Assembly: GCA_050746805.1 (NCBI GenBank)
Contig: JBOGMW010000102.1
Coordinates: 287-64,286 of the forward strand
DNA: 64,000 bases
From: Candidatus Acidiferrales bacterium
GTDB taxonomy: Bacteria > Acidobacteriota > Terriglobia > Acidiferrales > UBA7541
Direction of reading: 5' to 3'
Below are positions 6,736-50,329 of this stretch, piece by piece (position 1 is the stretch's first letter; every line of letters starts with the position of its first letter). A program made the translations under genes and the position numbers. Under the pieces are notes generated by a model that was not told where the DNA came from, searched no databases, and saw only the letters and a list, made by a program, of their open reading frames with translations.

Positions 6736-6835
6736 TCCGTCAGTTCGCCGAAGGCGGCTCAACGTGGTCGATCACGAGGCGGCCATGTGCCCTAGCCTTT
6801 CCCGGCGAAGATTCCTGGCCGCCACGCGGTTCTCC

Positions 6836-8612
6836 TCAGTTTCCGCTTGGCCGTTCGACGTGCTCGATGACGAGGACATCCACGGGAGCTTTTGCCGATA
6901 CGATGTTCAGCCCGAGTTGCTTGCGTAGAGCAACGAGAAACGGTGCGTTTGAGGGGTCGGCGGGCTTTGGCATTCCGGGAGATCTCGGCGTCCAATGCAA
7001 CTTGAAGCTGTAGCGGCCATGAAGGCCGGTCTGGTCCACGAGCGGCCGGCTGCTTCCCCCCGGGAGAAGCTCAACGATCCCAAGGAAGTCATTCAAAGAG
7101 CAGGACTTCATGTAGAACCCGCGCTTTCGCGGACCGTACCCTGGAGGTCCAGTTATTCGGCAAGGCCGGTTACCGGTCTTATCTTCGGTGATCTTCGGGC
7201 CATTTTTAGTCAAAACCAGCTCAAAGATGGGAAGCACCTTGGTCTCGTGCTTTACTCGCAGCTTGAACCGATTGATCAGCAGAGAGCGAAGCATCAGCAT
7301 GGCTTGATCTGATCGTTCATAAAGCGAGAGATTCTTCCATTTGCCATTGACGATGGAATCGCTCACCTTGGCGTTGATCTGGTAGAAATCGGTCCTTATC
7401 CACGACGGACCTCCCAATACCTGGGTCGGGCTCAGCGGCCTTACGTGCGGCTGGCCGTACGCATCCATAATTAACGCCGCCACGATCGTGCTCGCACTGA
7501 AATTGCCACGAGATAGTCGAACGCCCGCGAGCGGCATGCCTGGCAGGAGATTGCCTGCCACCAGCGGTGTTTGTAGCTGATCCGGTTTGATTGACGCGGT
7601 CTCAAACGAAGGCAATCGCGCGTTGCCCGCTTCTGCGCCCTGGGTTCCACCTTGTGATGCAAAACCCGTCATGCCCAAGGCAAGCGGTACCGCAATTGCC
7701 ACAGCCGCAGCCCCGCCCAGCAGCAATTTTCTCCCCGGTGTCAGCCTCTGGCCGATGTGCCGGGCCATGATGTGAACGATCCGCCTCTTCAGGTCTGAGC
7801 CGATGATTCCCGATACGCAAACAACCGGCGATTTGACGCAGTGCTTGCAGACATTGAGAATCGCGTCGGCGTACTCGCGCGGCTCTCTGCCCTGCGCCAG
7901 CACGGATTCATCGCAGGCACGCTCACGTTCTTCGACCAGCCTCGCTCCAATCCACCAGACCAGCGGATAGAACCAGAAGACCGCTTCAACGATCATGTGG
8001 ATCGCCGCCGTCAAGTTATCGCGTATTCGAATATGGCTTAGCTCATGCGCGAGAATCGCCTCTAGTTGAGGGCGCTCAAGGGTCTTGAAGATGCCTTCAG
8101 GCAAGAGCACTGTTGGCCGAAAGAATCCGATCACGCCGGGTTCGAGCAGTCCGGGAGAAGAGCGAACGGCAAGCGTTGCTGGAATGTCGATCGGCGTGCT
8201 GGCGCGGAGAGGAGCACGAACGCGGAGCCAGTCGCGCAGGCGCATCAAGGCGACGGCCGCAAATCCACATGCCCAAACGGCGAGAACCACGACCGTAACC
8301 CAATCGATTGCGTGCCTCGCTGCGGGCGCTAGAGTGATCGTGTCTGGGGAATGGCTGAGTGATCCGCACAATCGTGTCTGAGACAGCCGGCGAGGCGATC
8401 TCCGAGGCAATGTTCCCGGCTGCCAGCGAACCCCACAAGTGGTGACCGAGGCTCACCAACAGCGAAAATGGAATTAGGAACTTGACCGAGGCGCTAAGCC
8501 AAAGCCAGTAGCGAACCTGGGCTCGATTTTTGCGGAAGGCCAGCGTCAATAGGCCCACTGCAACCACAAACACCGTTGATTGCCACAAATGGTTCACCAC
8601 TTCAGCGATCAT
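6836..8612 (-). pseudogene. BlaR1/MecR1-type M56 peptidase sensor fused to a TIGR03435-like C-terminal domain, interrupted by a frameshift
   Basis: The N-terminus (MIAEVVNHLWQSTVF...SPAVSDTIVRITQPFP) is in the frame of ORF 8097..8612. The rest is in the frame of ORF 6836..8410 (DTITLAPAARHAIDW..., HELSHIRIRDN HExxH, C-terminal FETASIKP...LVDQTGLHGRYSF...). Removing one C from the CCCC run (plus-strand GGGG 8346..8349) joins the two frames. Confidence 0.75.
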
Positions 8613-11867: not shown

Positions 11868-13100
11868 ATGTCAGCAGCCAGCCAAGCAATTGCAAGCAGA
11901 AGCGCCAGCCGAGTTTTGGTGGCCAGTCCGCGCGCGGAATTTCGCAAGGACGTCCTGAAATCCCTTCCGCCGGCCACGTGCGGAGCGGAAGAGGCAGCGG
12001 GTGGCGCGGACGCCTTGCTCAAGCTCAGCGAACAGGATTTTCGTACGCTGCTGCTCGATCCGCGGCTAGACGACTTGGACGTCAACGAACTGGTGGAAAC
12101 GATTCATTCGCGCCATCCCGCGGTCAACGTGGTGGTACTCGACCGTGAATCGCACAATGAGCAATTGACGTTTGATCTGGCAGGCAATTCCGCAGCTGAA
12201 CAGTCGACGCAAGAAACGGAGCCGAGGCAATCTGAAAACGTGGATGCGGCGATTGTTTCCGACGCTTTACCGGTTTGCTCGTATTTGCCGGAGGAAGCAC
12301 AGCAGCCTGAACGACATGAATCCGCGCTCAGCGAGCCCTTGCCGGACATGATCGGGACCAGCCGCACGATGCAGCAGATCTGCAGGTTGGCGCGTTTGGT
12401 CGCGCCCCGCAGCACCGCCGTACTGATTGTGGGCGCCACCGGCACGGGCAAGGAACTAGTAGCTCGCGGCATTCACGCGCTCAGCCGCCGTAGCCGCGGT
12501 CCGTTCGTGGTGGTCAATTGCGCGGCGATCCCCGAGAGTTTGCTGGAGGCGGAACTTTTTGGATTCACGCGCGGCGCGTTCACCGGCGCATTCCAATCGC
12601 GGCTGGGCCGCATCCACGCGGCGCATGGCGGAACGCTATTGCTCGATGAAGTCGGCGAGTTGCCGCTGAGCATGCAGGCGAAACTTCTGCGGTTCGTGCA
12701 GGAAGGCGAAGTACAGCGGCTGGGAAGCGCGGACTTGTTCCGCGTGGATGCGCGGCTGATCGCGGCCACCAACGCGGACTTGCTGCAGCGGGTCCGCGAA
12801 AAACAATTTCGCGAAGATCTGTATTACCGGCTCTCGATTTTTCCGCTGAATCTGCCGCCCCTGCGCAATCGAACGGAAGACATCTTGCCGCTTGCGGAAC
12901 ACTTTTTGGAAACGCTGAGCCAGCAGAGCGCGCTGCCGCGAAAAAGTCTGAGCCTCGAAGCGTCGCGGCTGCTGCGCGCGCATTGCTGGCCGGGCAACGT
13001 ACGCGAGTTGCAGCACTCGATCGAGCGTGCGTTCGTGCTGGCCGATGGCCACGCGCAGATTCGAGCCGAAGACTTCAGCATGCCGGCGGCTTCCGCCTAA
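11868..13100 (+). CDS. sigma54-dependent activator (bEBP) with degenerate receiver and no C-terminal HTH
   Basis: Walker A VLIVGATGTGKELVARGIH. GAFTGA loop (RGAFTGAFQS). ESLLEAELFG. The protein ends ...NVRELQHSIERAFVLADGHAQIRAEDFSMPAASA, directly after the AAA+ domain. The N-terminal REC-like region has VLVASPRA where the DD/DE pair normally sits. A GAGGAGG SD is present. Confidence 0.85.
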   Translation: MSAASQAIASRSASRVLVASPRAEFRKDVLKSLPPATCGAEEAAGGADALLKLSEQDFRTLLLDPRLDDLDVNELVETIHSRHPAVNVVVLDRESHNEQLTFDLAGNSAAEQSTQETEPRQSENVDAAIVSDALPVCSYLPEEAQQPERHESALSEPLPDMIGTSRTMQQICRLARLVAPRSTAVLIVGATGTGKELVARGIHALSRRSRGPFVVVNCAAIPESLLEAELFGFTRGAFTGAFQSRLGRIHAAHGGTLLLDEVGELPLSMQAKLLRFVQEGEVQRLGSADLFRVDARLIAATNADLLQRVREKQFREDLYYRLSIFPLNLPPLRNRTEDILPLAEHFLETLSQQSALPRKSLSLEASRLLRAHCWPGNVRELQHSIERAFVLADGHAQIRAEDFSMPAASA

Positions 13101-13149: not shown

Positions 13150-14508
13150 ATGGGTCTATGCGCCATGCCGGAATCCGCAATTCGCAACAGCCCGGTCCGC
13201 CGGGAGAAGCAAGCGCGCCGAACGCCGCGGCAGAAAATTGCAACGAGAAGGACGCTCGAGCGCGCGTTCCAGAATTTCACGCACGCCGCCGACTCGCTAC
13301 AAAAATCCTACGCACAGTTGCAGGGTGAAGTGCTGCGGCTGCGCTTCGATCTGGAGCGCACGAACCGCGACTTGGCGTCGAGCGTAGAAGAGAACGCGCG
13401 CATGCGCCGGTATCTCGGCCAGGTTCTAGAAAGCCTGCCATGCGGAGTGCTGGTAGTTACAACCGATGGCGAAGTGCGCATGGCCAATCCCGAAGCGCGG
13501 CGGCTGCTTTCGCTTACTTCCGGCCATCCAGCAGATGACGCGGCTGGGCTGGCGCTGCCGCAGGAAATTGTCCAGCAGGCCCTCGACTTGTGCCGAAAAT
13601 CGTCGACGCCCGCCACTTTGGAATACGCGATTCTGGCGGCTTCAGGCGAGCGGATCGTTGGTCTCGTTTGCGCTGTGCTGGGCGATGCCGACGGAGAAGG
13701 ACTGAGCGGCGAATCGGTGCTGCTGCTTCGCGATGTGACCGAGGAGCGAAAGCAAGCAGCCGAGCGCGAATCAGCGCGACGCAAGGAGTCCCTGGCGGAA
13801 ATGGCCACTTTGCTGGCCCACGAAATTCGCAACCCTCTTGGCAGCCTGGAACTGTTCGCCGGACTTTTGGCTGACGCGGCTGCCACGCAGCCGGATCTGC
13901 GGCGTTGGACGGACCACATCCAAGCGGGACTTCGCGGTCTCTCTGCAACCGTCAACAACGTCCTTCAGTTTCACAGCCAGCCTGATGCGCAATTGACCGA
14001 CGTGAATTTAGGCCGCCTAATGCGCGAATCCGTCGAGTTTCTGCGGCCCCTGGCGCGGCAAGCCGGGCTAAAAATTGACCTGCAAAACTCGCTCGGGGAA
14101 TTGGAAATTCCGGCGGACGCCCACCGATTGCAGCAAGTGTTTTTCAATCTGGCGCTCAATGCGTTTCGTGCCATGTCCGTGGGAGGAACGCTTTCGATAC
14201 GGCTGCAGTGGGCAAACTTTGAGCAGCTCAATGAAGTGCGTATTTCGTTTGAAGACACCGGTCGCGGGATCGCTCCGGAACACCTGGCAAAAATATTCGA
14301 GGCTGGTTTCTCCACGCAACCTGGCAATCCAGGCATCGGGCTTTCGGTATGCCGCACGGTCGTGGAGCAGCATCACGGGACAATCTCGGCAACGAGCGAG
14401 GTGGGCAAAGGCGCCACTTTCTGCGTGATCGTGCCGCGAGTGGTGGTGGCTTCCCAAACGAGCCGAGGTTTGCTGAGCGAGGGACTGAGCGTCGGGAGAA
14501 GCGCATGA
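13150..14508 (+). CDS. cytoplasmic PAS-domain sensor histidine kinase
   Basis: No TM segment seen. Coiled-coil region. PAS-like LESLPCGVLVVTTDGEVRMANPEARRLL. H-box LAHEIRNPLGSL. HATPase FEDTGRGIAPEHLAKIFEAGFST...GIGLSVCR. The start is uncertain (ATG 13150 or 13165). Confidence 0.85.
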   Translation: MGLCAMPESAIRNSPVRREKQARRTPRQKIATRRTLERAFQNFTHAADSLQKSYAQLQGEVLRLRFDLERTNRDLASSVEENARMRRYLGQVLESLPCGVLVVTTDGEVRMANPEARRLLSLTSGHPADDAAGLALPQEIVQQALDLCRKSSTPATLEYAILAASGERIVGLVCAVLGDADGEGLSGESVLLLRDVTEERKQAAERESARRKESLAEMATLLAHEIRNPLGSLELFAGLLADAAATQPDLRRWTDHIQAGLRGLSATVNNVLQFHSQPDAQLTDVNLGRLMRESVEFLRPLARQAGLKIDLQNSLGELEIPADAHRLQQVFFNLALNAFRAMSVGGTLSIRLQWANFEQLNEVRISFEDTGRGIAPEHLAKIFEAGFSTQPGNPGIGLSVCRTVVEQHHGTISATSEVGKGATFCVIVPRVVVASQTSRGLLSEGLSVGRSA

Positions 14509-15911
14509 GCCGCGTTCTAGTTGTTGATGACGAAGCACCGATGCGCACCGCGCTGGAGGCGCATTTCGCTCGCGATGGTTGGGACGTGACCACGGCGTAC
14601 GGCGCGCGCGACGCACTGGAAAAGTTCCGGCGCGCTCCTTGTCCGCTAGTGATTAGCGACATGCGCATGCCCGATGGCGATGGGCTAGGCGTGATGCGCG
14701 GGATGCGCGAAGTGGCGCCGCAAGTGGGTGTTGTGTTTTTGACTGCCTATGGGTCCGTGCCGGATGCGGTGCGCGCGATGCGCGAAGGCGCTTGCGACTA
14801 TTTGGTGAAGCCGGTGTGTTTCGAGCAGCTGAAGGAAGCAACGCGGCGGGTGCTGGCGCGTTCTACGCCGGCGTCGAAGGAAGCCGCAGAAAGCGCGCTG
14901 GTTGGGAGTTCGCCGGCGCTGAAAGAGTTGCTGGAGCGGGCACGGCAGGTCGCTCGTACGGATATGGACGTCCTGATCTCAGCCGAAAGTGGCACCGGGA
15001 AGGAGCTACTGGCGCGGCTGATACATCAGGCGAGCGACCGCCGGAACCGCGCGTTCGTGGCGGTAAACTGCGCGGCTTTTCCAGAATCGCTGCTCGAGAG
15101 CGAACTTTTCGGATACGCTCGCGGTGCGTTCACGGGCGCGGTGACCGGCAAGCCCGGAAAATTCGAGTTGGCGCACGGTGGAACTTTGCTGCTCGATGAG
15201 ATTGGTGAAATGCCGTTGCCGCTGCAGCCGAAATTGCTGCGGGTCTTGCAGGAGCGGGAAGTGGACAGGTTGGGCGAGACGCGCACTGTGCGCGTGGACG
15301 TGCGCGTGATCGCGACCACGAACCAGCCGCTGGCGCGGTTGGTTGAGGAAGGTAAGTTTCGCGCCGATCTTTTTTACCGGCTCAACGTAGTCCCGTTCAC
15401 CATTCCACCGCTGCGCGAACGGCACGGCGACGTGCCGCTGCTGGTCGAGCATTTCCTGCGAAAATACGCCGCAGACGGGCGCGCCGAGGCGCCTCGTTTT
15501 TCTCCCGCATTGATGGAGCAGTGGGAGGCGCACGACTGGCCGGGGAACGTTCGCGAACTGGAAAATCTGGTGCGGCGAGCGATTGCGTTGCATTCGGGAG
15601 GGGAAGTGGGATCGGAGTTCTTCAATTCCGTGTCACCAAGAACGGGTGAGCCGCGCGAGGCGACGCCCGCCCGTCCTGACAGCTTGCGTGCAGAGTCAGC
15701 AGGATCATTGCGCGACATGGAGCGGCAGTTATTGGTCGCCACACTCAAAGCCGAGGGCGGAAACCGCACACGGGCGGCCCGCGCTCTGGGAATTTGTCCG
15801 CGCACGATGCGCAACAAAATCCGGGAATACGGATTGCCACCGCGAACGTACCAACGCGCGAGCGATAGGTTGTCTTCCGCTCTGGAGGGAAACGCGCATG
15901 AGCTTAATTGA
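14505..15911 (+). CDS. NtrC/FleR-type sigma54-dependent response regulator (REC-AAA+-Fis HTH)
   Basis: MSRVLVVDDEAPMR...VISDMRMPDGDG...LVKP is a canonical receiver. ESGTGKELLARLIH. GAFTGA. C-terminal GGNRTRAARALGICPRTMRNKIREYGL. ATGA start/stop overlap with the kinase gene. Confidence 0.9.
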   Translation: MSRVLVVDDEAPMRTALEAHFARDGWDVTTAYGARDALEKFRRAPCPLVISDMRMPDGDGLGVMRGMREVAPQVGVVFLTAYGSVPDAVRAMREGACDYLVKPVCFEQLKEATRRVLARSTPASKEAAESALVGSSPALKELLERARQVARTDMDVLISAESGTGKELLARLIHQASDRRNRAFVAVNCAAFPESLLESELFGYARGAFTGAVTGKPGKFELAHGGTLLLDEIGEMPLPLQPKLLRVLQEREVDRLGETRTVRVDVRVIATTNQPLARLVEEGKFRADLFYRLNVVPFTIPPLRERHGDVPLLVEHFLRKYAADGRAEAPRFSPALMEQWEAHDWPGNVRELENLVRRAIALHSGGEVGSEFFNSVSPRTGEPREATPARPDSLRAESAGSLRDMERQLLVATLKAEGGNRTRAARALGICPRTMRNKIREYGLPPRTYQRASDRLSSALEGNAHELN

Positions 15912-26695: not shown

Positions 26696-27019
26696 ATGGC
26701 GCCGTCCACTACCACAGCTGTCGTCGAACCATCTGTGCACCCCGCCCCGCCCGTGCACGCTGCGCCGCCGACGCCCGCCGCGACAGCTTCCGATCCCTGG
26801 GCTGGTTTTCTGCACGTTTCGATGATCGTCGCTGTCGACGCGACCATCGTCGGCTTGACGGTTCGCGAACTGTTTCGCCTGGAGAGAGGTTCGATCGTCG
26901 CCACCGCGCAACTGGTTGAATCGAACGTGCCTTTGAGAGCCGGTGGATCGCTGATTGGATGGGGCGAGTTTCAGGTTGTCGGAGAAAAGCTGGCCGTGCG
27001 CGTAGCGGAGTTGGCCTGA
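26696..27019 (+). CDS. short FliN-family (SpoA domain) switch protein
   Basis: 107 aa. A P/A-rich N-terminus, then VAVDATIVGLTVRELFRLERGSIVATAQLVESNVPLRAGGSLIGWGEFQVVGEKLAVRVAEL. Confidence 0.75.
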   Translation: MAPSTTTAVVEPSVHPAPPVHAAPPTPAATASDPWAGFLHVSMIVAVDATIVGLTVRELFRLERGSIVATAQLVESNVPLRAGGSLIGWGEFQVVGEKLAVRVAELA

Positions 27020-30329: not shown

Positions 30330-32393
30330 ATGGCTGCTACCGCCAATACGCTCGCAGGACGCAAATCCAACCGCGATTGGTTTTTGCCGATTGCTGCCGT
30401 CGCCGTCGTATTCGTGATGCTGGTGCCGATTCCAGCATTTCTTTTGGACATCCTGCTCGCCACCAGCATCACCCTCGGTGTTCTGGTGCTGCTCTCCGCG
30501 TTGCAAATTCTGCGCCCGGTGCAGTTTTCCGTTTTTCCCACGCTGCTTCTGCTGCTCACCCTGTTTCGCCTGTCGCTCAATCTGGCCAGCACGCGGCGCA
30601 TTCTGCTTCATGGCAGCGAAGGAACTTCCGCCGCTGGACACGTGATCGAATCGTTTGGTCAGTTCGTCGTGGGTGGGAATTATGTCGTGGGGTTCGTCGT
30701 GTTCCTCGCGCTGATAGCCATTCAATACTTGGTGATCAATCACGGCGCGGTGCGCACCGCGGAAGTTTCCGCGCGCTTTACTCTTGACGCCCTCCCGGGG
30801 AAGCAGATGGCTATCGACGCCGATCTCAACTCCGGGGCGATTGACGAGCGCACCGCCCGCACCCGCCGCGAGCAGATCGCGCGCGAGGCCGAATTCTACG
30901 GCGCGATGGACGGCGCCGCGCGCTTCAGCCAGCGCGACGCCTTGGCCACCATTCTGATCACCGCCATCAACATCATCGCCGGATTCCTGATCGGCGTGTT
31001 TCAGCACGGCATGACGCTGCAAGATGCGCTCAGTACTTACACCATTTTGACCGTGGGCGACGGCCTGGTGACTCTGATCCCGTCTCTGCTCGTATCCGTG
31101 GCGGGCGGGATCGTTGTCACTCGCGCGACATCCGACGATCCCATCGGCACGGAGGTCGGCCGGCAGCTTTTTGGTAAGCGGCGCACCCTCTACCTGGCTG
31201 CGGGAGTGATGACCAGCCTCGCTCTGATTCCCGGGCTGCCGAAGTTTTCCTTTCTGTTGCTCGCCGGTTCCGTGGCCTACCTGGGCTACCGCAATTCGGA
31301 GGTTGCCGCGCCCCTCGCCGGCAAGGACGCCGAAATCGAGCGCAAGCCAAACGCGCAGGAGCAGCTTGAATCTCTGTTGAAGCTCGACGATATCAGCGTC
31401 GAAGTCGGCTTTGGGCTGATTCCTCTAGTCGATCAGAAACAAGGCGGCCAGATGCTGCCGCGCATTCGCGCTCTGCGCCGCCATCTGGCCACCGAACTCG
31501 GTTTCATCGTTCCCGCCATCCATATTACGGACAACATGCGTCTGAAGCCGCGCGAATACGTAGTCCGGCTGCGAGGAGTGGAAATCGCACGCGGCGAAAC
31601 CTACCAGGATTGGCTGCTGGCCATCAGTTCGGAATCGTCTCCGCCCCCGATTCAAGGTGTGGAAACGCGCGAGCCTGCCTTCGGTGTTCCCGCGCGATGG
31701 ATTCCCACGAACATGCGGGATACCGCTCTAGGCGCGGGATACGCAGTGGTCGAGCAGACCTCCGTGATCGCCACGCATCTCGCCGAAGTGGTTCGCCGCC
31801 ACGCGCACGAAGTTCTCACCCGCCAGGAAACCAAGCGTTTGCTCGACGCGCTTTCCGAGTCGCAGCCAAAGCTCGTCGAAGAACTGGTGCCGCGCGTGCT
31901 CAGCCTGGGAGAAGTCGAAAAAATCCTCCAGCAGCTTCTGCGGGAACAAGTATCCATCCGCGATCTGCCCACCATTCTTGAGACACTGATCGACGCCTCC
32001 GCCGTTAATCGCAGCATCGTGTCTCTGGTTGAAACGGCTCGCCAGGCGTTGGGGCGCGCGCTGGTCCAGCCGCTGCTGCAGGACGACGGCAAACTCAAGG
32101 TGCTGGCGCTCGATCCGGCGCTCGAAGACGAAATCAACCGCGCTTTTGAGCCCGCAGCCGCTGCAGCTCGTCCTCCGGCCCTGCAAACCGGCTTTTTGCG
32201 CCGAGTCCTTGACGGACTTCGCCGCGTCGCGGGAGAACAAATTGCAGTGGCATCGCCCATCGTGCTTTGCAGCAGTCCGGCGCGCTTTCACCTGCGGCGG
32301 CTTCTCGAGCCGTTTGTGCCGCGCATCGTCGTTCTGTCACCCGCCGAAATTCCCCCGGTGGTGTCCGTCCAATCGCTGGGAGTAGTGCAATGA
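30330..32393 (+). CDS. flhA: flagellar export gate protein FlhA
   Basis: 687 aa. FPTLLLLLTLFRLSLNLASTRRILLHG...VVGFVVFLALIAIQYLVINHGAVRTAEVSARFTLDALPGKQMAIDADL. Confidence 0.97.
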   Translation: MAATANTLAGRKSNRDWFLPIAAVAVVFVMLVPIPAFLLDILLATSITLGVLVLLSALQILRPVQFSVFPTLLLLLTLFRLSLNLASTRRILLHGSEGTSAAGHVIESFGQFVVGGNYVVGFVVFLALIAIQYLVINHGAVRTAEVSARFTLDALPGKQMAIDADLNSGAIDERTARTRREQIAREAEFYGAMDGAARFSQRDALATILITAINIIAGFLIGVFQHGMTLQDALSTYTILTVGDGLVTLIPSLLVSVAGGIVVTRATSDDPIGTEVGRQLFGKRRTLYLAAGVMTSLALIPGLPKFSFLLLAGSVAYLGYRNSEVAAPLAGKDAEIERKPNAQEQLESLLKLDDISVEVGFGLIPLVDQKQGGQMLPRIRALRRHLATELGFIVPAIHITDNMRLKPREYVVRLRGVEIARGETYQDWLLAISSESSPPPIQGVETREPAFGVPARWIPTNMRDTALGAGYAVVEQTSVIATHLAEVVRRHAHEVLTRQETKRLLDALSESQPKLVEELVPRVLSLGEVEKILQQLLREQVSIRDLPTILETLIDASAVNRSIVSLVETARQALGRALVQPLLQDDGKLKVLALDPALEDEINRAFEPAAAAARPPALQTGFLRRVLDGLRRVAGEQIAVASPIVLCSSPARFHLRRLLEPFVPRIVVLSPAEIPPVVSVQSLGVVQ

Positions 32394-32442
32394 CGCCCCA
32401 TGCCAAGTCCTGGTGTGGTTTGAAAGGGTCCCTGTGAACGAG

Positions 32443-33273
32443 ATGAGTCAACAATCTGTCGCGGCGCCCGCGTTACTCGATGAAGGACAGCGCGAAAAAC
32501 TGCTCATCGAGCATTTGCCGCAGGTGCAATACATCGCGCGGCGCATTCACGACCGGCTGCCTCCGCAAGTGCTGCTCGAAGATCTGGTGCACGCCGGAAT
32601 TCTTGGCCTGATGGATGCGGTGCAAAAGTACGATCCAGGCAAAAACGTACAGTTGAAGCATTACGCCGAATTTCGCATTCGCGGCGCCATTCTCGATAGC
32701 CTCCGTCAAGTCGATTGGAGCCCGCGAGCTTTGCGCCGTCAGGCGCGCCGCATGGAACAGGCCATCTCGGATTGCAAGGCGCGCCTCGGCCGCGATCCGA
32801 GCGAGCCTGAAATTGCCGCGGAACTCAACATCAGCCTGGAACGTTTGCAGCAATTGCTTGGCGATTTGCGCGGCCTGGATATTGGCAGCCTGCAATCGGA
32901 AGCCAATGAATCATCGGGCGATGAGGTGGCGCAACCGCGCGCGGTGGGCGAGGAAAACGATCCGTACCAGCAGGCGCTGCGGTCGGAAATGAACGGACTG
33001 CTGGAACGTGCCATCGGTGAACTTCCCGACCGCGAACGGCAGGTCCTCGCTCTTTACCACTACGAGGAACTCACCATGAAGGAAGTCGGCGCGGTGCTCA
33101 AGATTGGAGAATCGCGCGTCTCGCAGATTCACACTGCGGCGCTGCTCAGGCTTCGCGTGCGCATGCGCGAACTGGTGGAATTGTTGCCGACGAGTTCGAG
33201 GCAGCCCGCGCACGTGCCTTCGCTTGCGCGCCGGCAGGCCGCCGTGGAGGTGAACGTATGGAAAAAATCCTGA
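32443..33273 (+). CDS. fliA: flagellar sigma factor FliA (sigma28)
   Basis: LIEHLPQVQYIARRIHDRLPPQVLLEDLVHAGILGLMDAVQKYDPGKNVQLKHYAEFRIRGAILD... region 4 LTMKEVGAVLKIGESRVSQIHTAALLRLR. An alternative GTG start lies at 32413. Confidence 0.9.
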   Translation: MSQQSVAAPALLDEGQREKLLIEHLPQVQYIARRIHDRLPPQVLLEDLVHAGILGLMDAVQKYDPGKNVQLKHYAEFRIRGAILDSLRQVDWSPRALRRQARRMEQAISDCKARLGRDPSEPEIAAELNISLERLQQLLGDLRGLDIGSLQSEANESSGDEVAQPRAVGEENDPYQQALRSEMNGLLERAIGELPDRERQVLALYHYEELTMKEVGAVLKIGESRVSQIHTAALLRLRVRMRELVELLPTSSRQPAHVPSLARRQAAVEVNVWKKS

Positions 33274-34241
33274 AGCAGGAAGAAATCGACCATTTATTCC
33301 GCAGCGCGAAAGTCTCGCCCGCCGCGCTCAAAGTCCGCCGTCGCGCGGTGCAGACGTGCGACTTTCGCCAATCCGGCCAGCTGAGCAAAAACCAGGTTCG
33401 CCAGGTCAGCTCGCTTCACGATAATTTCGCTCCCAACGTTTCCAATTCTCTAGGCGCCTACCTGCGCGTCGGGTTTCAGATGAGTTTGGTGGCCGTCGAG
33501 CAGCTCGCTTACAGTGAATTTCTCGGGCGGCTTCCGGAGCAAACGTACTTTTCCACCTCGCTGTTGATGCCCACGGAAGAAACCGCGGCGCTGCAGATGG
33601 ATTTATCGCTGATTTTCCCGATGATCGACTTGTTGCTGGGCGGTCCCGGGCGCAGTCTCGACGAACCTCGCGACCTCACGGAGATCGAAGAGCAGATTGC
33701 CATCACCGTAATCGGTGTACTTTGGCGCGAGCTGCAAGCTACCTGGCAAATCGCCTGGCCGCTCGAGTTTCAAGCAGGTCCGCGCCTGAAGCCGTCGCAA
33801 ACGATGAGCTTGCTGCCTTCCGGCGAGCGCGTCCTAAACGTGAGCTTTGAAATTCAATTGACGGATGTTCGCGGCGTGCTGAATCTCGTCTTCCCGGCGA
33901 TCGTTTCCAACATGTTGCTGCGAAAGCTTTCCCAGCAGGGCTTGGTCCATCGCCGCCGGCGCTCGGAGGATAGCACCGCGCGGATTCGCGAACGTCTTCT
34001 CGAAGCAAGCGTAGCCATGGACCTCGATCTCGCGCACGTGCCACTACGCATCCGCGATATTGTCGATCTGGAGCTTGGCCAAGTTCTCCCGCTGCGCCAT
34101 TCACTAGAAGAGTCGATGACGATTTCCATTAACGGCGAGCGCATTTTCAGCGGCGCGCCGGTCAGTTGCGGTTCGGCGCGCGCTGCTTTAATTCAGAGCA
34201 AGCTTCCCATTCCCGGTTTGCTGCTTAAGGAGCACGCGTGA
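33258..34241 (+). CDS. fliM: flagellar motor switch protein FliM
   Basis: MEKILKQEEIDHLF (CheY-P-binding-type N-terminus)...LSLIFPMIDLLLGGPG. 327 aa. Confidence 0.9.
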   Translation: MEKILKQEEIDHLFRSAKVSPAALKVRRRAVQTCDFRQSGQLSKNQVRQVSSLHDNFAPNVSNSLGAYLRVGFQMSLVAVEQLAYSEFLGRLPEQTYFSTSLLMPTEETAALQMDLSLIFPMIDLLLGGPGRSLDEPRDLTEIEEQIAITVIGVLWRELQATWQIAWPLEFQAGPRLKPSQTMSLLPSGERVLNVSFEIQLTDVRGVLNLVFPAIVSNMLLRKLSQQGLVHRRRRSEDSTARIRERLLEASVAMDLDLAHVPLRIRDIVDLELGQVLPLRHSLEESMTISINGERIFSGAPVSCGSARAALIQSKLPIPGLLLKEHA

Positions 34242-35215
34242 ATACCGGCGCACTGCCCGAAATTTCCGTGGGCGATCAGAAATTCGCGCAAATCTGGGCT
34301 GATGCCACCGCGCGCGTTCTCGAGTCGCTGCATGCCAAGCAGTTTACGGCCACGCCGCGCCCTCCCGCCGCAGCCGAAACAGCCGTTGCCGCCTCCGGCG
34401 AAAGTTTGTGGATGCGCTTCCAAGCGAGCGGCAGCGTAGCCGGAGAATTCGCTTTTCAGTTCACGCGTTCTGATGGCGTGCGGCTGGCGCAGTTACTTGC
34501 CGGGGAGCCGCTTGATGGCGCCGCCGCGTTCAATGAAACGCACACCGACGCGCTGCAGGAAACGTTTCGGCAATTTGCAGGCGTTGCCGCTTCCGCTTGC
34601 AAATCGAAATACGGCGAGGAAGCCCAATTCCAATTGCAGCCGGGAAACGAGCCGGCTTGGACGCCCGCCGGATACGCCGCGTGGCTTTTTGCGGCGCCGG
34701 AAATCGCGCCGTTGCAATGGACGCTGCTGCTGAACGCCGATCTTCATAGCTCGCTGGACTCCTTCAGCGACAAACAGCAAGCGAACGCCGCGCCAGAAGC
34801 GCCCGTTGCGCCCGCCCCAACGCCCGCCATTGCGGAGTCGCCGGAACCGCCGGCAATGCCGGAATATGCGCCTTCACAACGCATGGAGCCGCGGGCCATT
34901 GACGCGCCGCCAGACGCAACCGCCGCGGGCGCCGAAGACGCTGCGCCGATGCCCGCCAATCTCGACGTACTGCTTGATGTGGAGTTGGACGCGAGGCTGC
35001 GATTTGGCCAGCGCGATATGCTGCTGCGCGAAATTTTGGAGTTGCGCCCTGGCTCGGTGGTGGAGCTCGATCGGAAAGTGCAGGAACCGGCGGAACTGCT
35101 TGTCTCCGGACGAGTGATCGCGCGTGGAGAAGTGGTGATCGTGGACGGTAATTACGGGCTGCGCATCACGGATATTGTGCAGCCGCAGCAGCGGCTCGAG
35201 TCCGTGGAAACCTAA
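34238..35215 (+). CDS. fliN: FliN/FliY-type switch protein (long N-terminal extension plus C-terminal SpoA domain)
   Basis: C-terminus NLDVLLDVELDARLRFGQRDMLLREILELRPGSVVELDRKVQEPAELLVSGRVIARGEVVIVDGNYGLRITDIV. GTGA overlap with fliM. Confidence 0.85.
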   Translation: MNTGALPEISVGDQKFAQIWADATARVLESLHAKQFTATPRPPAAAETAVAASGESLWMRFQASGSVAGEFAFQFTRSDGVRLAQLLAGEPLDGAAAFNETHTDALQETFRQFAGVAASACKSKYGEEAQFQLQPGNEPAWTPAGYAAWLFAAPEIAPLQWTLLLNADLHSSLDSFSDKQQANAAPEAPVAPAPTPAIAESPEPPAMPEYAPSQRMEPRAIDAPPDATAAGAEDAAPMPANLDVLLDVELDARLRFGQRDMLLREILELRPGSVVELDRKVQEPAELLVSGRVIARGEVVIVDGNYGLRITDIVQPQQRLESVET

Positions 35216-35272
35216 CAGCGCGCGGACTATCGGGGTATTTCGGTCGGCACAAGCTTCGCGGGAGGAAAATCC

Positions 35273-36085
35273 TTGGAGTGCGAAAATCCAAGCTGTCCAT
35301 CGCGCAATTCGTTGCGGCGGCTGATGTCCTGGCGCAAGGGGGAAGGCGTCACGTTGCAGGGGCGCTGGTATTGCAGCCTCGACTGTTTCGAGCAGGCGAT
35401 TACGGATGTTTTCGCGGGGCTGCTGAAGTTGCCGGAGGAGCCGCTGCCTCGGCTGCATCGCGTGCCGCTGGGCCTGTTGTTGCTTGGGCGCGGCGTGATC
35501 ACCGATGCCCAACTGAAATCGGCGCTCGAAGCGCAGCGCAGCTCCGGAGTGGAGCGGCTGGGGCATTGGCTGGTGCGGCTCGGAGTCGCTTCGGCGACGG
35601 ACGTTTCCGCGGCGCTGGCAGCGCAGTGGGGTTGCGCCACGTTTCCGCTGGAGCGCGATTTTCGGTATCGGGAGTGCGCCGGCTTGCTGCCGTACGCGCT
35701 GCTGGAATCCTCGCGCATGATTCCAGTGCGTTATCTGCCCGCGAGCCAGATGCTATTCGTCGCTTTTGCCGAGGACATCGACCATACCGCGCTGTACGCC
35801 ATCGGGCAACTGACGGGCGGCCGTACCGAGCCGTGCGTGGCTACTGAAGCGGCGGTGGAACACGCGCTCGATGAGGTGCGCGCGGCGCATCGGCCAACCG
35901 AAATTGTGTTCGAGACGCTGTGGGACGCGCGAGAAATGGCTCACACGATCCGCGATTACGCCGTGAAATTGGGCGCCGACGAACTGATGCTGGCGCGGCC
36001 GCGGCGATTTTTGTGGGTGCGGCTGCGGGCGTCCGAGCAGTCGTGGGATTTTCTGTTCCGGCTGCCGCCAGGCAATTTGGAGTAG
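35273..36085 (+). CDS. stand-alone MshEN / T2SSE_N-domain protein with N-terminal Cys4 module (no ATPase domain)
   Basis: TTG start with a GGGAGGA SD. MECENPSCPS...WYCSLDC. Then PLGLLLLGRGVITDAQLKSALEAQ-RSSGVE-RLGHWLVRLGVASATDVSAALAAQ, followed by the alpha/beta part LLPYALLESSRMIPVRYL...LFVAFAEDIDHTALYAIGQLTGGRTEPCVATEAAVEHAL. Confidence 0.75.
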   Translation: MECENPSCPSRNSLRRLMSWRKGEGVTLQGRWYCSLDCFEQAITDVFAGLLKLPEEPLPRLHRVPLGLLLLGRGVITDAQLKSALEAQRSSGVERLGHWLVRLGVASATDVSAALAAQWGCATFPLERDFRYRECAGLLPYALLESSRMIPVRYLPASQMLFVAFAEDIDHTALYAIGQLTGGRTEPCVATEAAVEHALDEVRAAHRPTEIVFETLWDAREMAHTIRDYAVKLGADELMLARPRRFLWVRLRASEQSWDFLFRLPPGNLE

Positions 36086-36247
36086 CGGAAACCGAGCAGC
36101 GGGAGCACTTTGTGTGGCTGCCTTTGAGCGGCGTAGGCCCCAATGTCTACCGAAGCGGTACGAGCTTTTCACCGGCTGAAAACCTAAAGCCCCTTGCTCG
36201 CCAAGCCGATATCTCCCTTGCGGCGACTTTGCGAACCGGGGGAGCGT

Positions 36248-36895
36248 ATGCCAACCGCAACACAGAGCGGGATTCACGAGACAAGTTTTTCGTGCCATGC
36301 GGGAATGCCGAGCGCTTTCGGAGCCACAGCGCCGCAGACGCGCAAAGCCGCGGCAGTCGTGCCTGAGGTTTGCGATCGCGCTGCGCGCTTGGCGGACCTG
36401 TTGGCCCAAGATCCAGTTGACCTGACGAGCGTGAGCGACGAAATCCGCTCGCAGCCTTCGCTCGCCGCTGCCGTAAGATGGATTGCGGCATCGCTGCAGT
36501 TGTTGCCGCCGGACTCGATAAGCAGCGTAGAGGAAGCGGCTATTGTGCTGGGTACCGAACGGCTGCGAGTTCTGTTGCATGCTTGGCCCGCATTCGAGCA
36601 GGCGCAAGGGCGAGCGGACGGCGATGCCCCAGTTTCCAGCGAAGACGTTGCTGCCTCGGGCGTGGCATGGACGCCGGAGTCGGTTTACCTTGCTTGCTTC
36701 GTCCGGCTATTGGGACTCGGTAGCGGAGACACAGCAGATTCCATCGACGCTGTTTGCTTGGCTGCGAGTAACAGAACGGAAATTGCCGAGTTGACGGAGA
36801 TGCTGGTGCGGGATTTTCTCGCGCTGATTCCTACCGTCCATCCGCGGCTGCCCGGTGCGCTTCGGCAACGCGACGAGCAGGGCAAGAGACGGTAG
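36248..36895 (+). CDS. HDOD-like domain protein (divergent)
   Basis: LADLLAQDPVDLTSVSDEIRSQPSLAAAVRWIAASLQLLPPDSISSVEEAAIVLGTERLRVLL follows the HDOD N-terminal pattern. The start is uncertain (ORF opens at 36194). Confidence 0.5.
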   Translation: MPTATQSGIHETSFSCHAGMPSAFGATAPQTRKAAAVVPEVCDRAARLADLLAQDPVDLTSVSDEIRSQPSLAAAVRWIAASLQLLPPDSISSVEEAAIVLGTERLRVLLHAWPAFEQAQGRADGDAPVSSEDVAASGVAWTPESVYLACFVRLLGLGSGDTADSIDAVCLAASNRTEIAELTEMLVRDFLALIPTVHPRLPGALRQRDEQGKRR

Positions 36896-37080: not shown

Positions 37081-38172
37081 TCACCTAGATTTCAAATAGT
37101 AGCCGGGGCGGGCGCGGACGATGACGTCGCGCTGATCGACGGTGACTCGGAGGATGTGAAAGCCGGGAGGACCGTCTGAAGGCGGACTAAAGCTGAGAAT
37201 GTATTGCGCGTGGAGTTCGCTGCCGATGCGATCGAGCGCGCTCTGCAGCGCCGATTCGCGTAGACCGCTGTAGTCGAAACCGCCGGTGGCGGCTGCGGCC
37301 ACTTCGAGCTGATGATGTTTGATCTCGTTGGTGCCGCGTTCAAGAAGCCACAGCGATGGTATGGCGAAACCGATGCATTGAGAGTCTCCATAGCCGGAAA
37401 CGGGCGAGGAGCACGGCGCGGCTGTGATAGGCGGAAGTCCGCGGATTTTTAACGGAGTCGGGTCCAGTTTGCCGGAGCGCAGGTCGGCTCCCACGCTGCT
37501 TTCTCCTACGACGAAAATTGAGATGTCGGCCCGTTCGGCTTCTCGCACGATTTCGCCGAGCGTGGCCCTGCTCCCACTATCCTGCGATTCGCCAACGACG
37601 AGCATGATGCGTCGCCATTTCCTTGGCTGCGTTTCCAATAGGTGAACGCCGGCCGCCATGCCGTCGTGGAGGTCCATTTCCGGCGTTTCGAATTTCGTCC
37701 CCTCGATTGCCTTTTCCAAAACATCGCGATCCGAAGTGAACGGCTGGCGGATGGTGACCGTCGAATCGTAAGTGATCATCGCCGCTTGGCTGTCGAGCGC
37801 CATAACCGTGTCCGCGAAGATGATTCCGAGGCTGTGAATCGCCGGCGCCGTCGAGTGCAAGCGCGAACTTGTGTCGAGCACCAGAGCGACCGCGAGAGGA
37901 TCGCCGCCAAGTTCCCAGTGATCTAGTTTCTGTTCGACGCCATTGTCGAATACGTGAAAATGGGATTGCGATAGATTGAGGACCAATTCACCGTGGCGAG
38001 TGGTGACGGTTACTGGGATGGTCACTTCGTTGGTGGTCACGCGAATGGGATTTTTGGCCACTGCGGGAGGAGGCGGCGACTGAGCGAGGACAACGAGCGA
38101 AATGAGTGCAATGAATGCAATGAATGAAACGATTACGCCCAAACGGTGGACCGGCAGACAGATCACACACAT
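37081..38172 (-). CDS. VWA-domain protein (TIGR03436-like acidobacterial VWFA family), signal-anchored
   Basis: MCVICLPVHRLGVIVSFIAFIALISLVVLAQ. IRVTTNEVTIPVTVTTRHGELVLNLSQSHFHVFDNGVEQKL. MIDAS-type VLDTSSR. The ORF stays open upstream to 38457, but that part is R/S/P-rich. Confidence 0.75.
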   Translation of the reverse strand: MCVICLPVHRLGVIVSFIAFIALISLVVLAQSPPPPAVAKNPIRVTTNEVTIPVTVTTRHGELVLNLSQSHFHVFDNGVEQKLDHWELGGDPLAVALVLDTSSRLHSTAPAIHSLGIIFADTVMALDSQAAMITYDSTVTIRQPFTSDRDVLEKAIEGTKFETPEMDLHDGMAAGVHLLETQPRKWRRIMLVVGESQDSGSRATLGEIVREAERADISIFVVGESSVGADLRSGKLDPTPLKIRGLPPITAAPCSSPVSGYGDSQCIGFAIPSLWLLERGTNEIKHHQLEVAAAATGGFDYSGLRESALQSALDRIGSELHAQYILSFSPPSDGPPGFHILRVTVDQRDVIVRARPGYYLKSR

Positions 38173-38440
38173 GCCAGGGGAATGGTGCACGTAATGCAAA
38201 GTTGACGCCAGGCCATCGCCGGGGCCGTCGCTGCCAGAAACCGGAACTGCGGCGCTGCTCCTGCTACGAGTGCGGTGCGACCGTCGGGCCAGATGGTATG
38301 CGGCAAAGGGTGCCATGCGCGGCGGCTGTGGAGTCGGCAAAAAATGCCTCATGCTGCGCGGCGTGCGATTCGAGGACCTGCGAGCGGCTGCGGACGTTGC
38401 GGTGCAAGCAGTTGCGCCGGCGATGTGGAAAGTACGGCGA

Positions 38441-38456
38441 TGGCTCTGATCTTGCA
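38441..38456 (+). promoter_or_regulatory. sigma54-type promoter (-24/-12) for flgF operon
   Basis: TGGCTC-TGATC-TTGCA compared with the consensus TGGCAC-N5-TTGCA. The GC of the -12 element lies 28 nt upstream of the flgF ATG, leaving a leader that carries the GAGGGA SD. Confidence 0.55.
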
Positions 38457-38482
38457 CTGGAGAAGAGCCGAAGAGGGAAATT

Positions 38483-43460: not shown

Positions 43461-43487
43461 TAAAGGTTTCTTAATCGCGGCCGATTA
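43461..43487 (+). promoter_or_regulatory. sigma28-type promoter upstream of flgM
   Basis: TAAAG-N14-GCCGATTA, the same architecture as the fliC promoter. It lies 32 nt upstream of the flgM GTG. Confidence 0.65.
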
Positions 43488-43518: not shown

Positions 43519-43848
43519 GTGCAAGTGAGGATCGATCCAAACTTGGGAGCGTCACAAGCCCAGGGAACGGAACGGGCGGCGAGCCCGGAGAATACGGCGG
43601 CGCCTTCGTCGGCGTCGAAGCCACTGCGAATTTCGAACCAGGATAGCGGCGATCAGGCGAACCTCTCCGCGGATGCGCAGCAGCTATCGAATTTGAGCCA
43701 GGCACTGAACGACGTGCCGCAGGTCCGGCAGGAGCGCGTTGCGCCACTGAGCAAGGCGGTGCAGAGCGGCACGTACGCGGCGCAGAACCAGCAGATCGCG
43801 CAATCGATGCTGCGCGATTTCCGGATGACGAGTTCGTCGAGCCAATAA
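43519..43848 (+). CDS. flgM: anti-sigma28 factor FlgM
   Basis: 109 aa. DQANLSADAQQLSNLSQALNDVPQVRQERVAPLSKAVQSGTYAAQNQQIAQSML. Confidence 0.85.
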   Translation: MQVRIDPNLGASQAQGTERAASPENTAAPSSASKPLRISNQDSGDQANLSADAQQLSNLSQALNDVPQVRQERVAPLSKAVQSGTYAAQNQQIAQSMLRDFRMTSSSSQ

Positions 43849-50301: not shown

Positions 50302-50329
50302 AAATCGGCCAGGGCTGAGAGCGCTTTAA
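50302..50329 (-). promoter_or_regulatory. sigma28-type promoter of fliC
   Basis: The minus strand reads TTAAAG-CGCTCTCAGCCCTG-GCCGATTT (TAAA-N15-GCCGATTT). It lies about 120 nt upstream of the fliC ATG. Confidence 0.7.

Follow-up and report, generated by a model that had tools for sequence, protein, structure and literature searches.

In a 64,000-nucleotide stretch of DNA from a Candidatus Acidiferrales bacterium (GenBank assembly GCA_050746805.1, contig JBOGMW010000102.1, positions 287 to 64,286; referred to below as the window), a gene lying directly behind the flagellar switch genes encodes a protein in which an MshEN domain, predicted to bind cyclic di-GMP (c-di-GMP), stands without an ATPase between a zinc-ribbon-like module and a βαβββ module. 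We consider it probable that this protein, hereafter the MshEN protein, is dedicated to the flagellum, and we regard as evenly poised the complete reading, in which an MshEN-type receptor for c-di-GMP, dedicated to the flagellum, acts on the switch complex. For the motile-sessile switch, control of flagella by c-di-GMP is a central paradigm. Among receptor domains for c-di-GMP, MshEN ranks second in how widespread it is, and its characterised outputs are ATPases of secretion and of pili and the glycosyltransferase NfrB. The c-di-GMP effectors of the motor that we know of are PilZ proteins (YcgR, FlgZ, MotI), the CheY-like Cle, TipF, or regulators such as FleQ, and we know of no mechanism for MshEN proteins that lack an ATPase. 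The gene and the parts of its product are as follows.

35273..36085, + strand: gene for the Zn-ribbon–MshEN–βαβββ protein (MshEN gene), TTG start, 270 amino acids, stop codon included
35260..35265, + strand: Shine-Dalgarno sequence GGGAGG, 7 nucleotides 5' of the TTG, read in the sequence
35273..35422, + strand: N-terminal Cys4 zinc-ribbon-like module, residues 1-50, putative ligands C3, C8, C34 and C38, 'WYCSxxCFE', from the AlphaFold2 secondary structure
35465..35536, + strand: MshEN motif I, PLGLLLLGRGVITDAQLKSALEAQ, residues 65-88, by NF053729, regular expression and mapping to Vibrio cholerae MshE (VcMshE)
35537..35554, + strand: spacer RSSGVE, 6 residues, residues 89-94
35555..35626, + strand: MshEN motif II, RLGHWLVRLGVASATDVSAALAAQ, residues 95-118, by NF053729, regular expression and VcMshE mapping
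35633..35887, + strand: MshEN_C / T2SSE_N1-type α/β subdomain, residues 121-205, by PF05157 (133-205), Foldseek (5htl, 8pdk, 7lkm) and phmmer (5tsg)
35888..36067, + strand: C-terminal βαβββ module, residues 206-265, with near-invariant W248 and R250

The open reading frame (ORF) of 270 residues, beginning with TTG on the plus strand, was confirmed as an earlier reading of the letters alone (the sequence-only reading) had given it, and it is virtually certain to be a real gene. The G+C content of its codon positions (GC3 0.77 against GC2 0.48) marks the coding frame among the overlapping ORFs. The TTG start is supported because it is preceded by the GGGAGG Shine-Dalgarno sequence and because the conserved N-terminus M[E/D]CEN is the position of the start in most homologues. 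In the public annotation by the Prokaryotic Genome Annotation Pipeline, the orthologue starts at Met18 and has 253 amino acids (MGH9685684.1 / MGH9738518.1); with that start, the part corresponding to 35273-35323 of the window is omitted, and the conserved Cys4 module loses C3 and C8.

The protein almost certainly has the MshEN fold. It passed the curated cut-offs of both profiles, namely NCBIfam NF053729 (c-di-GMP_motif, MshE-related; 48.4 bits, cut-off 38, residues 65-118) and Pfam MshEN PF05157 (24.3 bits, cut-off 23.1, residues 133-205). The best match of phmmer in the PDB was Geobacter PilB (5tsg, E=1e-11, residues 65-202), and MshE (5HTL) was matched with 7.5e-7. An AlphaFold2 model built on 27 family members (predicted local distance difference test, pLDDT, 87.3; predicted TM-score, pTM, 0.80) consists of a β-hairpin followed by a helix in residues 1-50, bearing the four cysteines, four helices in residues 65-119, which correspond to the MshEN_N bundle, a ββαβα subdomain in residues 121-205, which corresponds to MshEN_C / T2SSE_N1, and a βαβββ module in residues 206-265. 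The α/β part of the T2SSE_N fold had been expected after the motifs, and both PF05157 and the model place it there. In a Foldseek search of the PDB with this model, only MshEN domains were found at probability 1.0 (7LKM, 5HTL and 8PDK; target TM-score, TMt, 0.65-0.75 over about 140 residues each); the top match was the N-domain of Xanthomonas citri PilB in complex with PilZ (7LKM), and the others were the c-di-GMP-bound structures of V. cholerae MshE (5HTL, TMt 0.68-0.75) and of the Thermus thermophilus PilF GSPII-B domain (8PDK). No T2SSE or AAA family was detected at E<=1 by Pfam in the 270 residues and no ATPase domain by NCBIfam, the alignments to PilB chains stop at about residue 202, and the roughly 270 family members are 200-375 amino acids long. 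The absence of an ATPase, which the sequence-only reading had stated, is borne out by Pfam and NCBIfam.

Relatives were collected in two ways. A first search gave 157 relatives, of which the 120 listed have 200-330 amino acids, and 289 clusters at E<=1e-30 were obtained when 1.84 billion representatives were searched exhaustively with a profile. Among the best 150 of these 289 clusters, nearly all cover the whole architecture (profile positions 2-265), with mostly about 250-340 amino acids and 30-45% identity to the query. All named members are called 'hypothetical protein' or 'T2SS protein E N-terminal domain' (T2SS, type II secretion system). The members with a taxon label come from uncultured metagenome-assembled genomes, mostly of Terriglobia, Terriglobales or Candidatus Acidiferrales; a few bins with other taxon labels are taken to be mis-binned. 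The ratio of nonsynonymous to synonymous substitution rates (dN/dS) of the MshEN gene was 0.06-0.18 over the pairs tested and 0.06-0.09 between close relatives. Judged by pairwise distances, the protein's rate of evolution is slightly below that of FliM, clearly below that of FliN/Y, and above those of FliA and FlhA.

The 24-residue c-di-GMP motif of MshEN, published in a relaxed form by Wang et al. 2016 (PMC5013675), was searched in the six-frame translation of the whole window. Two matches were found, both in the MshEN ORF and in tandem, and triplet shuffles of the window gave a mean of 0.2; both motifs satisfy a stricter regular expression of our own as well. The two motifs and the RSSGVE spacer thus stand as first quoted. 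All 20 motif positions of VcMshE align to the MshEN protein, 19 of them with identical or conservative residues. In motif I, L10/G11/L14/V15/G18/I19/L25/L29/Q32 correspond to L66/G67/L70/L71/G74/V75/L81/L85/Q88, and in motif II, R38/L39/G40/L43/I44/G47/F48/L54/L58/Q61 correspond to R95/L96/G97/L100/V101/G104/V105/V111/L115/Q118. The lone non-conservative change is that from R9 to P65, and the same 'PLG' occurs in the proven binders PA14_29490 and Escherichia coli NfrB: the former was among the proteins assayed for binding to c-di-GMP and has 'PLG' in the alignment (Wang et al. 2016 supplement, PMC5013675), and the latter binds c-di-GMP at its MshEN domain, according to a review. Two residues before motif I, R63 is invariant.

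These positions are strongly conserved in the family. In a close set of 121 sequences, P65, G67, L81 and L85 are each present in 121/121, Q88 in 119/121, R or K at position 95 in 120/121, G97 in 120/121 and Q118 in 120/121, and the spacer has six residues in 119/121. In the distant set (best 150 of 289 clusters), P65 is kept in 147/147, G67 in 145, L81 in 139, Q88 in 134 (H in another 13), G97 in 147, Q118 in 149/149 and, in the C-terminal module, W248 in 142; the spacer has six residues in 102 and the canonical five in 39, and it is longer still than six in Geobacter metallireducens PilB. Since the binding motif is conserved in this way, binding of c-di-GMP by the MshEN protein is predicted, and we consider it highly probable.

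The modules on either side of the MshEN domain are less easily placed. The Cys4 module that had been noted ahead of the motifs is present, with C3, C8, C34 and C38; the four cysteines are invariant in 25 diverse N-terminal segments (a set chosen for carrying four cysteines), and across the wider family they are kept, with rare exceptions, wherever the N-terminus is called. Pfam scans of the 25 members and a PDB profile search assigned the module to no family, and gave only scattered sub-threshold zinc-finger matches. A treble-clef finger of the FCS/MYM/TRASH type was considered and rejected: zf-FCS was matched in one of the 25 members (E=0.0038) and not in the window protein, and the spacing, with C-X4-C in the first pair and YCSxxC in the second, differs from the Cys-X2-Cys ... 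(F/Y)CS-X2-Cys of the FCS/TRASH signature, so that the resemblance in sequence is only a lead. The C-terminal module, modelled alone, reached a pLDDT of 90.7. A fold search with it gave no significant match (best E 0.02, to generic βαβββ folds of the half-VOC or nucleotidyltransferase-like kind), a PDB profile search found no sequence relative, and the ideas that it is what remains of an ATPase N2 domain or another copy of T2SSE_N1 were rejected on topology, though not rigorously. Outside the Cys4 module, two further cysteines are widely conserved, namely C121 (35633-35635, in the invariant QWGC right after motif II; 123/150 distant members) and C188 (35834-35836, in 'TEPC'; 136/150); they might form a disulfide, a redox site or a metal site.

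The association with the flagellum rests on the genomic position of the gene, for which the following features are needed.

32413..33273, + strand: fliA (σ28), Pfam Sigma70 r2/r3/r4, 3' end overlapping the fliM start, syntenic in related loci
33258..34241, + strand: fliM, PF02154 116 bits, TIGR01397, with a 4-nucleotide overlap and translational coupling to the next gene
34238..35215, + strand: long fliN/fliY-like switch gene, 325 amino acids, FliMN_C at residues 245-314, PF01052 77.6 bits, best NCBIfam matches FliY models, and TIGR02480 fliN
36185..36210, + strand: σ28-type promoter-like motif TAAAG-N15-GCCGAT, followed by AT to 36212, just 3' of the MshEN gene and before the HDOD gene
36194..36895, + strand: HDOD-like gene (truncated or divergent HDOD), PF08668 29.1 bits, cut-off 22.9, residues 57-141
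26696-27019, + strand: small fliN, 107 amino acids, in the canonical fliL-...-fliPQR position
43519-43848: flgM, canonical anti-σ28 gene with its own σ28 promoter
36185-36210 (+), 43461-43485 (+) and 50304-50328 (-): the σ28-type motif matches of the window, preceding the HDOD gene, flgM and the flagellin gene

The MshEN gene follows the switch gene ending at 35215 in the same orientation with a gap of 57 nucleotides, and the next gene is HDOD-like, both as first read. Of the two genes called fliM and fliN upstream, the first is indeed fliM, and the second proved to be a long FliN/FliY-like gene, a second and small FliN being encoded elsewhere in the window. The N-terminal part of the long protein, about 190 residues, has no family match, and its relative in one distant locus (L033) has a faint CheX match.

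We examined this gene order in 28 species-representative genomes encoding a relative (close loci) and in 10 metagenomic contexts (distant loci), which are designated by L numbers where they have to be told apart. The synteny with fliM and fliN proposed by the sequence-only reading was found in 24/28 close loci, in the order FlhB-FlhA-FliA-FliM-FliN-MshEN gene, and FliA-FliM-FliN directly precedes the MshEN gene in 8/10 distant loci, that is, in 32/38 loci overall. The gaps between FliN and the MshEN gene in the distant loci are -4, 2, 7, 9, 13, 16 and 23 nucleotides, and 173 in L036, whose gene call lacks part of the N-terminus; L036 is the sole exception to a range of -4 to 57 nucleotides across close and distant loci. 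An HDOD homologue lies 3' of the MshEN gene in 20/28 close loci. In the distant loci, HDOD, a CheY-like receiver and CheX follow in various combinations, the fullest arrangement being MshEN gene-HDOD-CheY-CheX-FlgFGAHI in L037 and L038, and the HDOD proteins of L035-L038 are full-length (320-350 amino acids).

The motif TAAAG-N12-17-GCCGAT has three matches in the window, where 0.14 are expected, and none of 100 shuffles reached three. It lies directly 3' of the MshEN stop codon in 25/39 related loci, whichever gene comes next (HDOD or CheY-CheX), including distant loci with CheY-CheX downstream and the flagella-less L023; examples are L001 6914-6939, L030 8913-8937 and L033 7928-7952. Neither a σ28 motif nor a terminator-like site was found between fliN and the MshEN gene. 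With no such signal before the gene and a conserved σ28 motif after it, the MshEN gene is predicted to be the last cistron of the fliA-fliM-fliN unit, which perhaps reaches 5' to flhBA, and the genes 3' of it (HDOD, CheY-CheX) would be separate, FliA-dependent late genes. The true start of the HDOD gene is probably ATG at 36248 rather than TTG at 36194, since the σ28-type promoter overlaps the latter at 36185-36210.

As an exploratory analysis, rate covariation among the six proteins of the unit (15 pairs) was measured in 23 taxa by partial Mantel (mirror-tree) tests, and was used just as a tie-breaker. MshEN-FliM was the strongest of the 15 pairs (partial r 0.68, permutation p 0.0005), followed for the MshEN protein by FliA (0.30, p 0.03) and FliN (0.22, p 0.06); in a version with 12 taxa and nine proteins, the pairs of MshEN with FliN and FliM ranked first and third of 36. 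On this exploratory basis, the covariation would favour FliM over FliA as the partner. We hold, tentatively and somewhat short of an even chance, that the switch complex is the target of the MshEN protein.

The company of fliA in the intact loci also suits a different role, that of a c-di-GMP-dependent regulator of flagellar gene expression, which would bind FliA (as an anti-σ factor or co-factor), the OmpR-type response regulator or the σ54 activators. Its logic would parallel that of the RsiG-(c-di-GMP)-σWhiG switch in Streptomyces, reportedly described by Gallagher et al. in 2020; WhiG is a σ28-family sigma factor. The likeness lies in the coupling of a c-di-GMP receptor to a σ28-family factor, for the MshEN gene is predicted to share a transcription unit with fliA in every intact locus and is kept with fliA in L023. 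The differences are that the fold is another one (MshEN), that a regular expression for the RsiG-type helical-hairpin motif E(X)3S(X)2R(X)3Q(X)3D found nothing in the MshEN protein, in which no DNA-binding domain was found either, and that the window already has a separate, canonical FlgM under its own σ28 promoter. The covariation with FliA is positive, but much weaker than that with FliM.

The loci from which the flagellar cluster has been deleted bear on this regulator most directly. Such remnants were found in four close loci (L011, L022, L023 and L028) and in the distant L034, the deleted part being equivalent to the window span 11105-35272. In L011, the fumarase gene and a response-regulator gene (residues 1-209) are followed by an intact MshEN gene; in L022, the response regulator (1-185) is followed by a FliN stub (87-325) and an MshEN gene with one frameshift; in L028, the MshEN gene after the response regulator has several frameshifts and a stop; and in L034, a GGDEF gene and a response-regulator gene precede the MshEN gene. 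L023 has the order response regulator, σ54 activator, FliA, MshEN gene, σ28 motif, HDOD, MotA/MotB fragments and redoxin, that is, fliM and fliN were lost, while FliA, the MshEN gene, the promoter and HDOD are intact beside the response regulator and the σ54 activator. The response regulator is often truncated at residues of about 185-209 at the deletion end-points, next to the MshEN gene. Repeats that might have mediated deletion between the response-regulator and MshEN genes were sought, and just chance matches of 9-19 nucleotides were found. The deletions are apparently independent, since the sisters of L011, L010 and L013 (93-94% identical), keep the cluster. No relaxation of selection was detectable in the orphan copies, with dN/dS of 0.06-0.09 (L023, L011) against 0.06-0.08 in flagellated sisters, a comparison whose weight depends on how old the deletions are.

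For a regulator of expression, these remnants count on both sides. In its favour are the intact set of L023, the place of the MshEN gene next to the OmpR-type response regulator in L011, L028 and L034 (in L022 the FliN stub lies between) and the unrelaxed dN/dS of the orphans; against it, no fliA is adjacent in L011 and L034, and two of the four close orphans (L022 and L028) are frameshifted, which is consistent with decay. The frameshifts could be pseudogenisation or consensus errors of nanopore sequencing. Taken together, we consider such a regulator unlikely.

It is rather improbable that the MshEN fold serves here as a ligand-independent scaffold, a protein-protein module such as an assembly factor of the C-ring or of the export gate. 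The MshEN-like N-domains of XpsE and X. citri PilB work in this way without binding c-di-GMP, the latter, with its PilZ partner, being the top structural match of our model; degenerate MshEN domains without binding are common (Wang et al. 2016, PMC5013675), and motif I begins with P, not R. However, the residues whose loss abolishes binding in XpsE (VcMshE G11, I19, L29, R38, G40, L54, L58 and Q61) are all kept and near-invariant in about 270 members down to 30% identity, the 'PLG' proteins PA14_29490 and NfrB do bind c-di-GMP, and the NF053729 score exceeds the curated cut-off. Equally improbable is a c-di-GMP effector of general function whose target lies outside the flagellum (exopolysaccharide, adhesion or pili), with a gene that simply happens to sit at the margin of the flagellar cluster and an expression inverse to or coordinated with motility: no fewer than three lineages (L011, L023 and L034) have kept the gene after deletion of the cluster; it is apart from fliMN in L029 and lies at the border of two flagellar sub-clusters where insertions occur (a VWA gene there is absent from 28 close relatives), but its place right after fliN is held over very deep divergence with tiny or negative gaps, the genes that flank it belong in every case to motility or chemotaxis (HDOD, CheY, CheX, FlgF), and its strongest rate covariation is with FliM.

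Several observations weigh against a receptor dedicated to the switch. Where the structural flagellar genes are deleted (L011, L023 and L034), there are still intact MshEN copies, under purifying selection that is apparently undiminished; one would not expect this of a pure accessory of the motor, unless the deletions happened very recently or the genomes carry flagellar genes at other sites; these orphans are the main evidence that the MshEN protein might do more than serve the motor. In L029, the MshEN gene is separated from fliMN. Neither the Cys4 nor the βαβββ module has recognisable relatives pointing to a target. In E. coli, ycgR belongs to the late (class 3) genes, and expression in the class of σ28 and the C-ring suits a role in assembly or regulation no less well than one as a brake. 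The mirror-tree method is weak, with a score of only -0.09 for the known partners FliM and FliN. Finally, no cultured or named host was found among about 20 clusters inspected.

For a dedicated flagellar receptor acting on the switch complex, we propose the following chain. The protein would be made as the last cistron of the flhB-flhA-fliA-fliM-fliN unit, a position that would have it made alongside the switch (C-ring) proteins, probably in amounts proportional to theirs. c-di-GMP would bind to the tandem 24-residue motifs of the four-helix bundle, and the bundle, as in MshE and PilB, would re-orient relative to the α/β subdomain, the Zn-ribbon and the βαβββ modules. The liganded protein might then dock on the switch complex, with FliM as the best candidate and FliN/Y as the next, and docking would alter rotation, switching bias or C-ring assembly as c-di-GMP rises. 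The σ28-driven downstream genes (HDOD and, in many relatives, CheY and CheX) would belong to the same switch-control module. A brake or clutch in the manner of YcgR, as the sequence-only reading suggested, is plausible by analogy.

Compared with known systems, the closest relatives are the MshEN domains of MshE, PilB, PilF and GspE, which have the same fold (four-helix bundle plus T2SSE_N1 α/β subdomain) and the same tandem motif. The MshEN protein differs from the ATPases MshE, PilB and GspE in lacking the T2SSE ATPase and any pil, gsp or msh context, in having the N-terminal Cys4 and C-terminal βαβββ modules, and in its location in a flagellar switch operon; compared with the canonical motif of MshE, its motif I starts with P and its spacer has six residues, not five. 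The sequence-only reading knew of no description of an isolated MshEN copy, and in this it went too far: ATPase-less architectures were listed previously, namely PA3740 (MshEN-xT2SSE_N1, swarming), Myxococcus xanthus FrgA, MshEN-REC, (MshEN_N)2-CheX and CheA with MshEN_N (Wang et al. 2016, PMC5013675, Suppl. Table 4). In these and in E. coli NfrB (glycosyltransferase-MshEN), MshEN likewise serves as the input for c-di-GMP although no secretion ATPase is attached, several of them are tied to motility or chemotaxis, and NfrB and PA14_29490 share the 'PLG' of motif I with the MshEN protein. However, the order Zn-ribbon–MshEN–βαβββ and the flagellar-operon location are in none of the architectures listed by Wang et al. 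PA3740, known here by its architecture description (MshEN followed by a second, highly diverged T2SSE_N1 domain), may differ in its C-terminal part: in our model the C-terminal module is βαβββ and the T2SSE_N1 part is ββαβα, and the fold and PDB profile searches with the module gave no significant match. In the literature, we found neither a Zn-ribbon–MshEN–βαβββ family described nor an MshEN protein encoded within a flagellar switch operon, and nothing relevant on follow-ups of PA3740 or on Acidobacteria flagella and c-di-GMP.

In their regulatory logic, the nearest parallels are YcgR (E. coli/Salmonella), FlgZ (Pseudomonas) and MotI/DgrA (Bacillus subtilis), likewise small cytoplasmic c-di-GMP receptors of the flagellar regulon, with which the MshEN protein would share the line from c-di-GMP through an effector to the motor. 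A c-di-GMP effector in a flagellar operon has a precedent in the PilZ-type FlgZ, co-transcribed with flgMN (PMC3913639). The binding domain is unrelated, however, and the gene is predicted to lie in the fliA-fliM-fliN unit and not in a σ28 late unit; no PilZ/YcgR Pfam match to the MshEN protein was found at E<=1, and a regular expression for RxxxR plus [D/N]xSxxG was negative. The Caulobacter Cle CheY-like proteins and TipF are also c-di-GMP inputs to the flagellar switch or its assembly; Cle (a receiver domain with an Arg-rich tail) and TipF (a degenerate EAL domain) have no homology to the MshEN protein. Stand-alone HDOD proteins (PSPTO_4229, SadB) influence swimming (PMC11813219, PMC12075610), and the loci described here join the MshEN gene with HDOD, CheY and CheX. 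The MshEN_N-CheX fusions elsewhere, together with the neighbourhood of the MshEN gene and CheY-CheX, are a hint of the Rosetta-stone type, which suggests that MshEN-type sensing and the turnover of phosphorylated CheY (CheY-P) at the switch are functionally connected. Overall, a known receptor domain and a known regulatory logic meet in an architecture and an operon position that are new, with a target that is probably new.

In two loci, a gene for a GGDEF diguanylate cyclase lies nearby: in L029, it is divergent and directly abuts the MshEN gene (6430-7758, -), and in L034, it is likewise divergent (4842-6167, -), with the OmpR-type response-regulator gene between it and the MshEN gene. From its position, this neighbour could be a local source of c-di-GMP for the MshEN receptor.

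The remainder of the window is a complete flagellar supercluster. The left flank has fumarase, the OmpR-type response regulator and two σ54 activators, followed by the basal body, export and hook genes FlgC, FliE, FliF, FliG, FliI, FlgD, FlgE, FliL, small FliN, FliP, FliQ, FliR, FlhB and FlhA, then by the unit with FliA, FliM, long FliN/Y, the MshEN gene and HDOD, and, after a VWA gene, by the rod, ring and late genes FlgF, FlgG, FlgA, FlgH, FlgI, FlgM, FlgN, FlgK, FlgL, FliS, FliD, flagellin, MotA and MotB. Among the annotated ORFs of the window, there were no pilus or T2SS genes (pil/msh/gsp). The two σ54-dependent activators that head the cluster are at 11868-13100 (+) and 14349-15911 (+); one has neither a receiver domain nor a detected HTH_8 and is reminiscent of FleQ, which is a c-di-GMP receptor in Pseudomonas, and the other is NtrC/FleR-like. 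The genes flhF and flhG, which usually sit between flhA and fliA in polar flagellates, are not present at the flhA-fliA junction (32393-32413), where fliA directly follows flhA, and fliM-fliN follow fliA. The VWA-domain gene (37081-38457, -) splits the cluster between HDOD and flgF and is absent from 28/28 close relative loci. At the same site, the 98%-identical L001 has another insert of about 4.6 kb, and other relatives have CheY-CheX; the site looks like a variable insertion point.

We put forward, as a possibility held with less than even confidence, that Terriglobia possess flagellar c-di-GMP effectors of a third, MshEN-based class, encoded in the switch operon, stoichiometric with FliM and FliN/Y, and acting on the C-ring (likeliest on FliM) via the Zn-ribbon and βαβββ modules by a mechanism unlike that of the PilZ brakes, for example by gating C-ring assembly or by affecting CheY-P turnover with the adjacent σ28-driven HDOD-CheY-CheX. 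Note that the labelled members are all from uncultured organisms, and work on them must start from biochemical, structural or heterologous approaches. If the proposal is true, this would be the first MshEN domain with a component of the rotary motor as its output, neither an ATPase nor a glycosyltransferase. The MshEN family would gain an example that is small, highly conserved and linked through gene order to a defined machine, and that could reveal how the domain signals without an enzyme partner. The conserved order of MshEN gene, σ28 promoter and HDOD-CheY-CheX gives HDOD proteins, whose function is obscure, a testable partner, and the system could show how Acidobacteriota, a dominant and little-studied soil phylum, couple c-di-GMP to motility.

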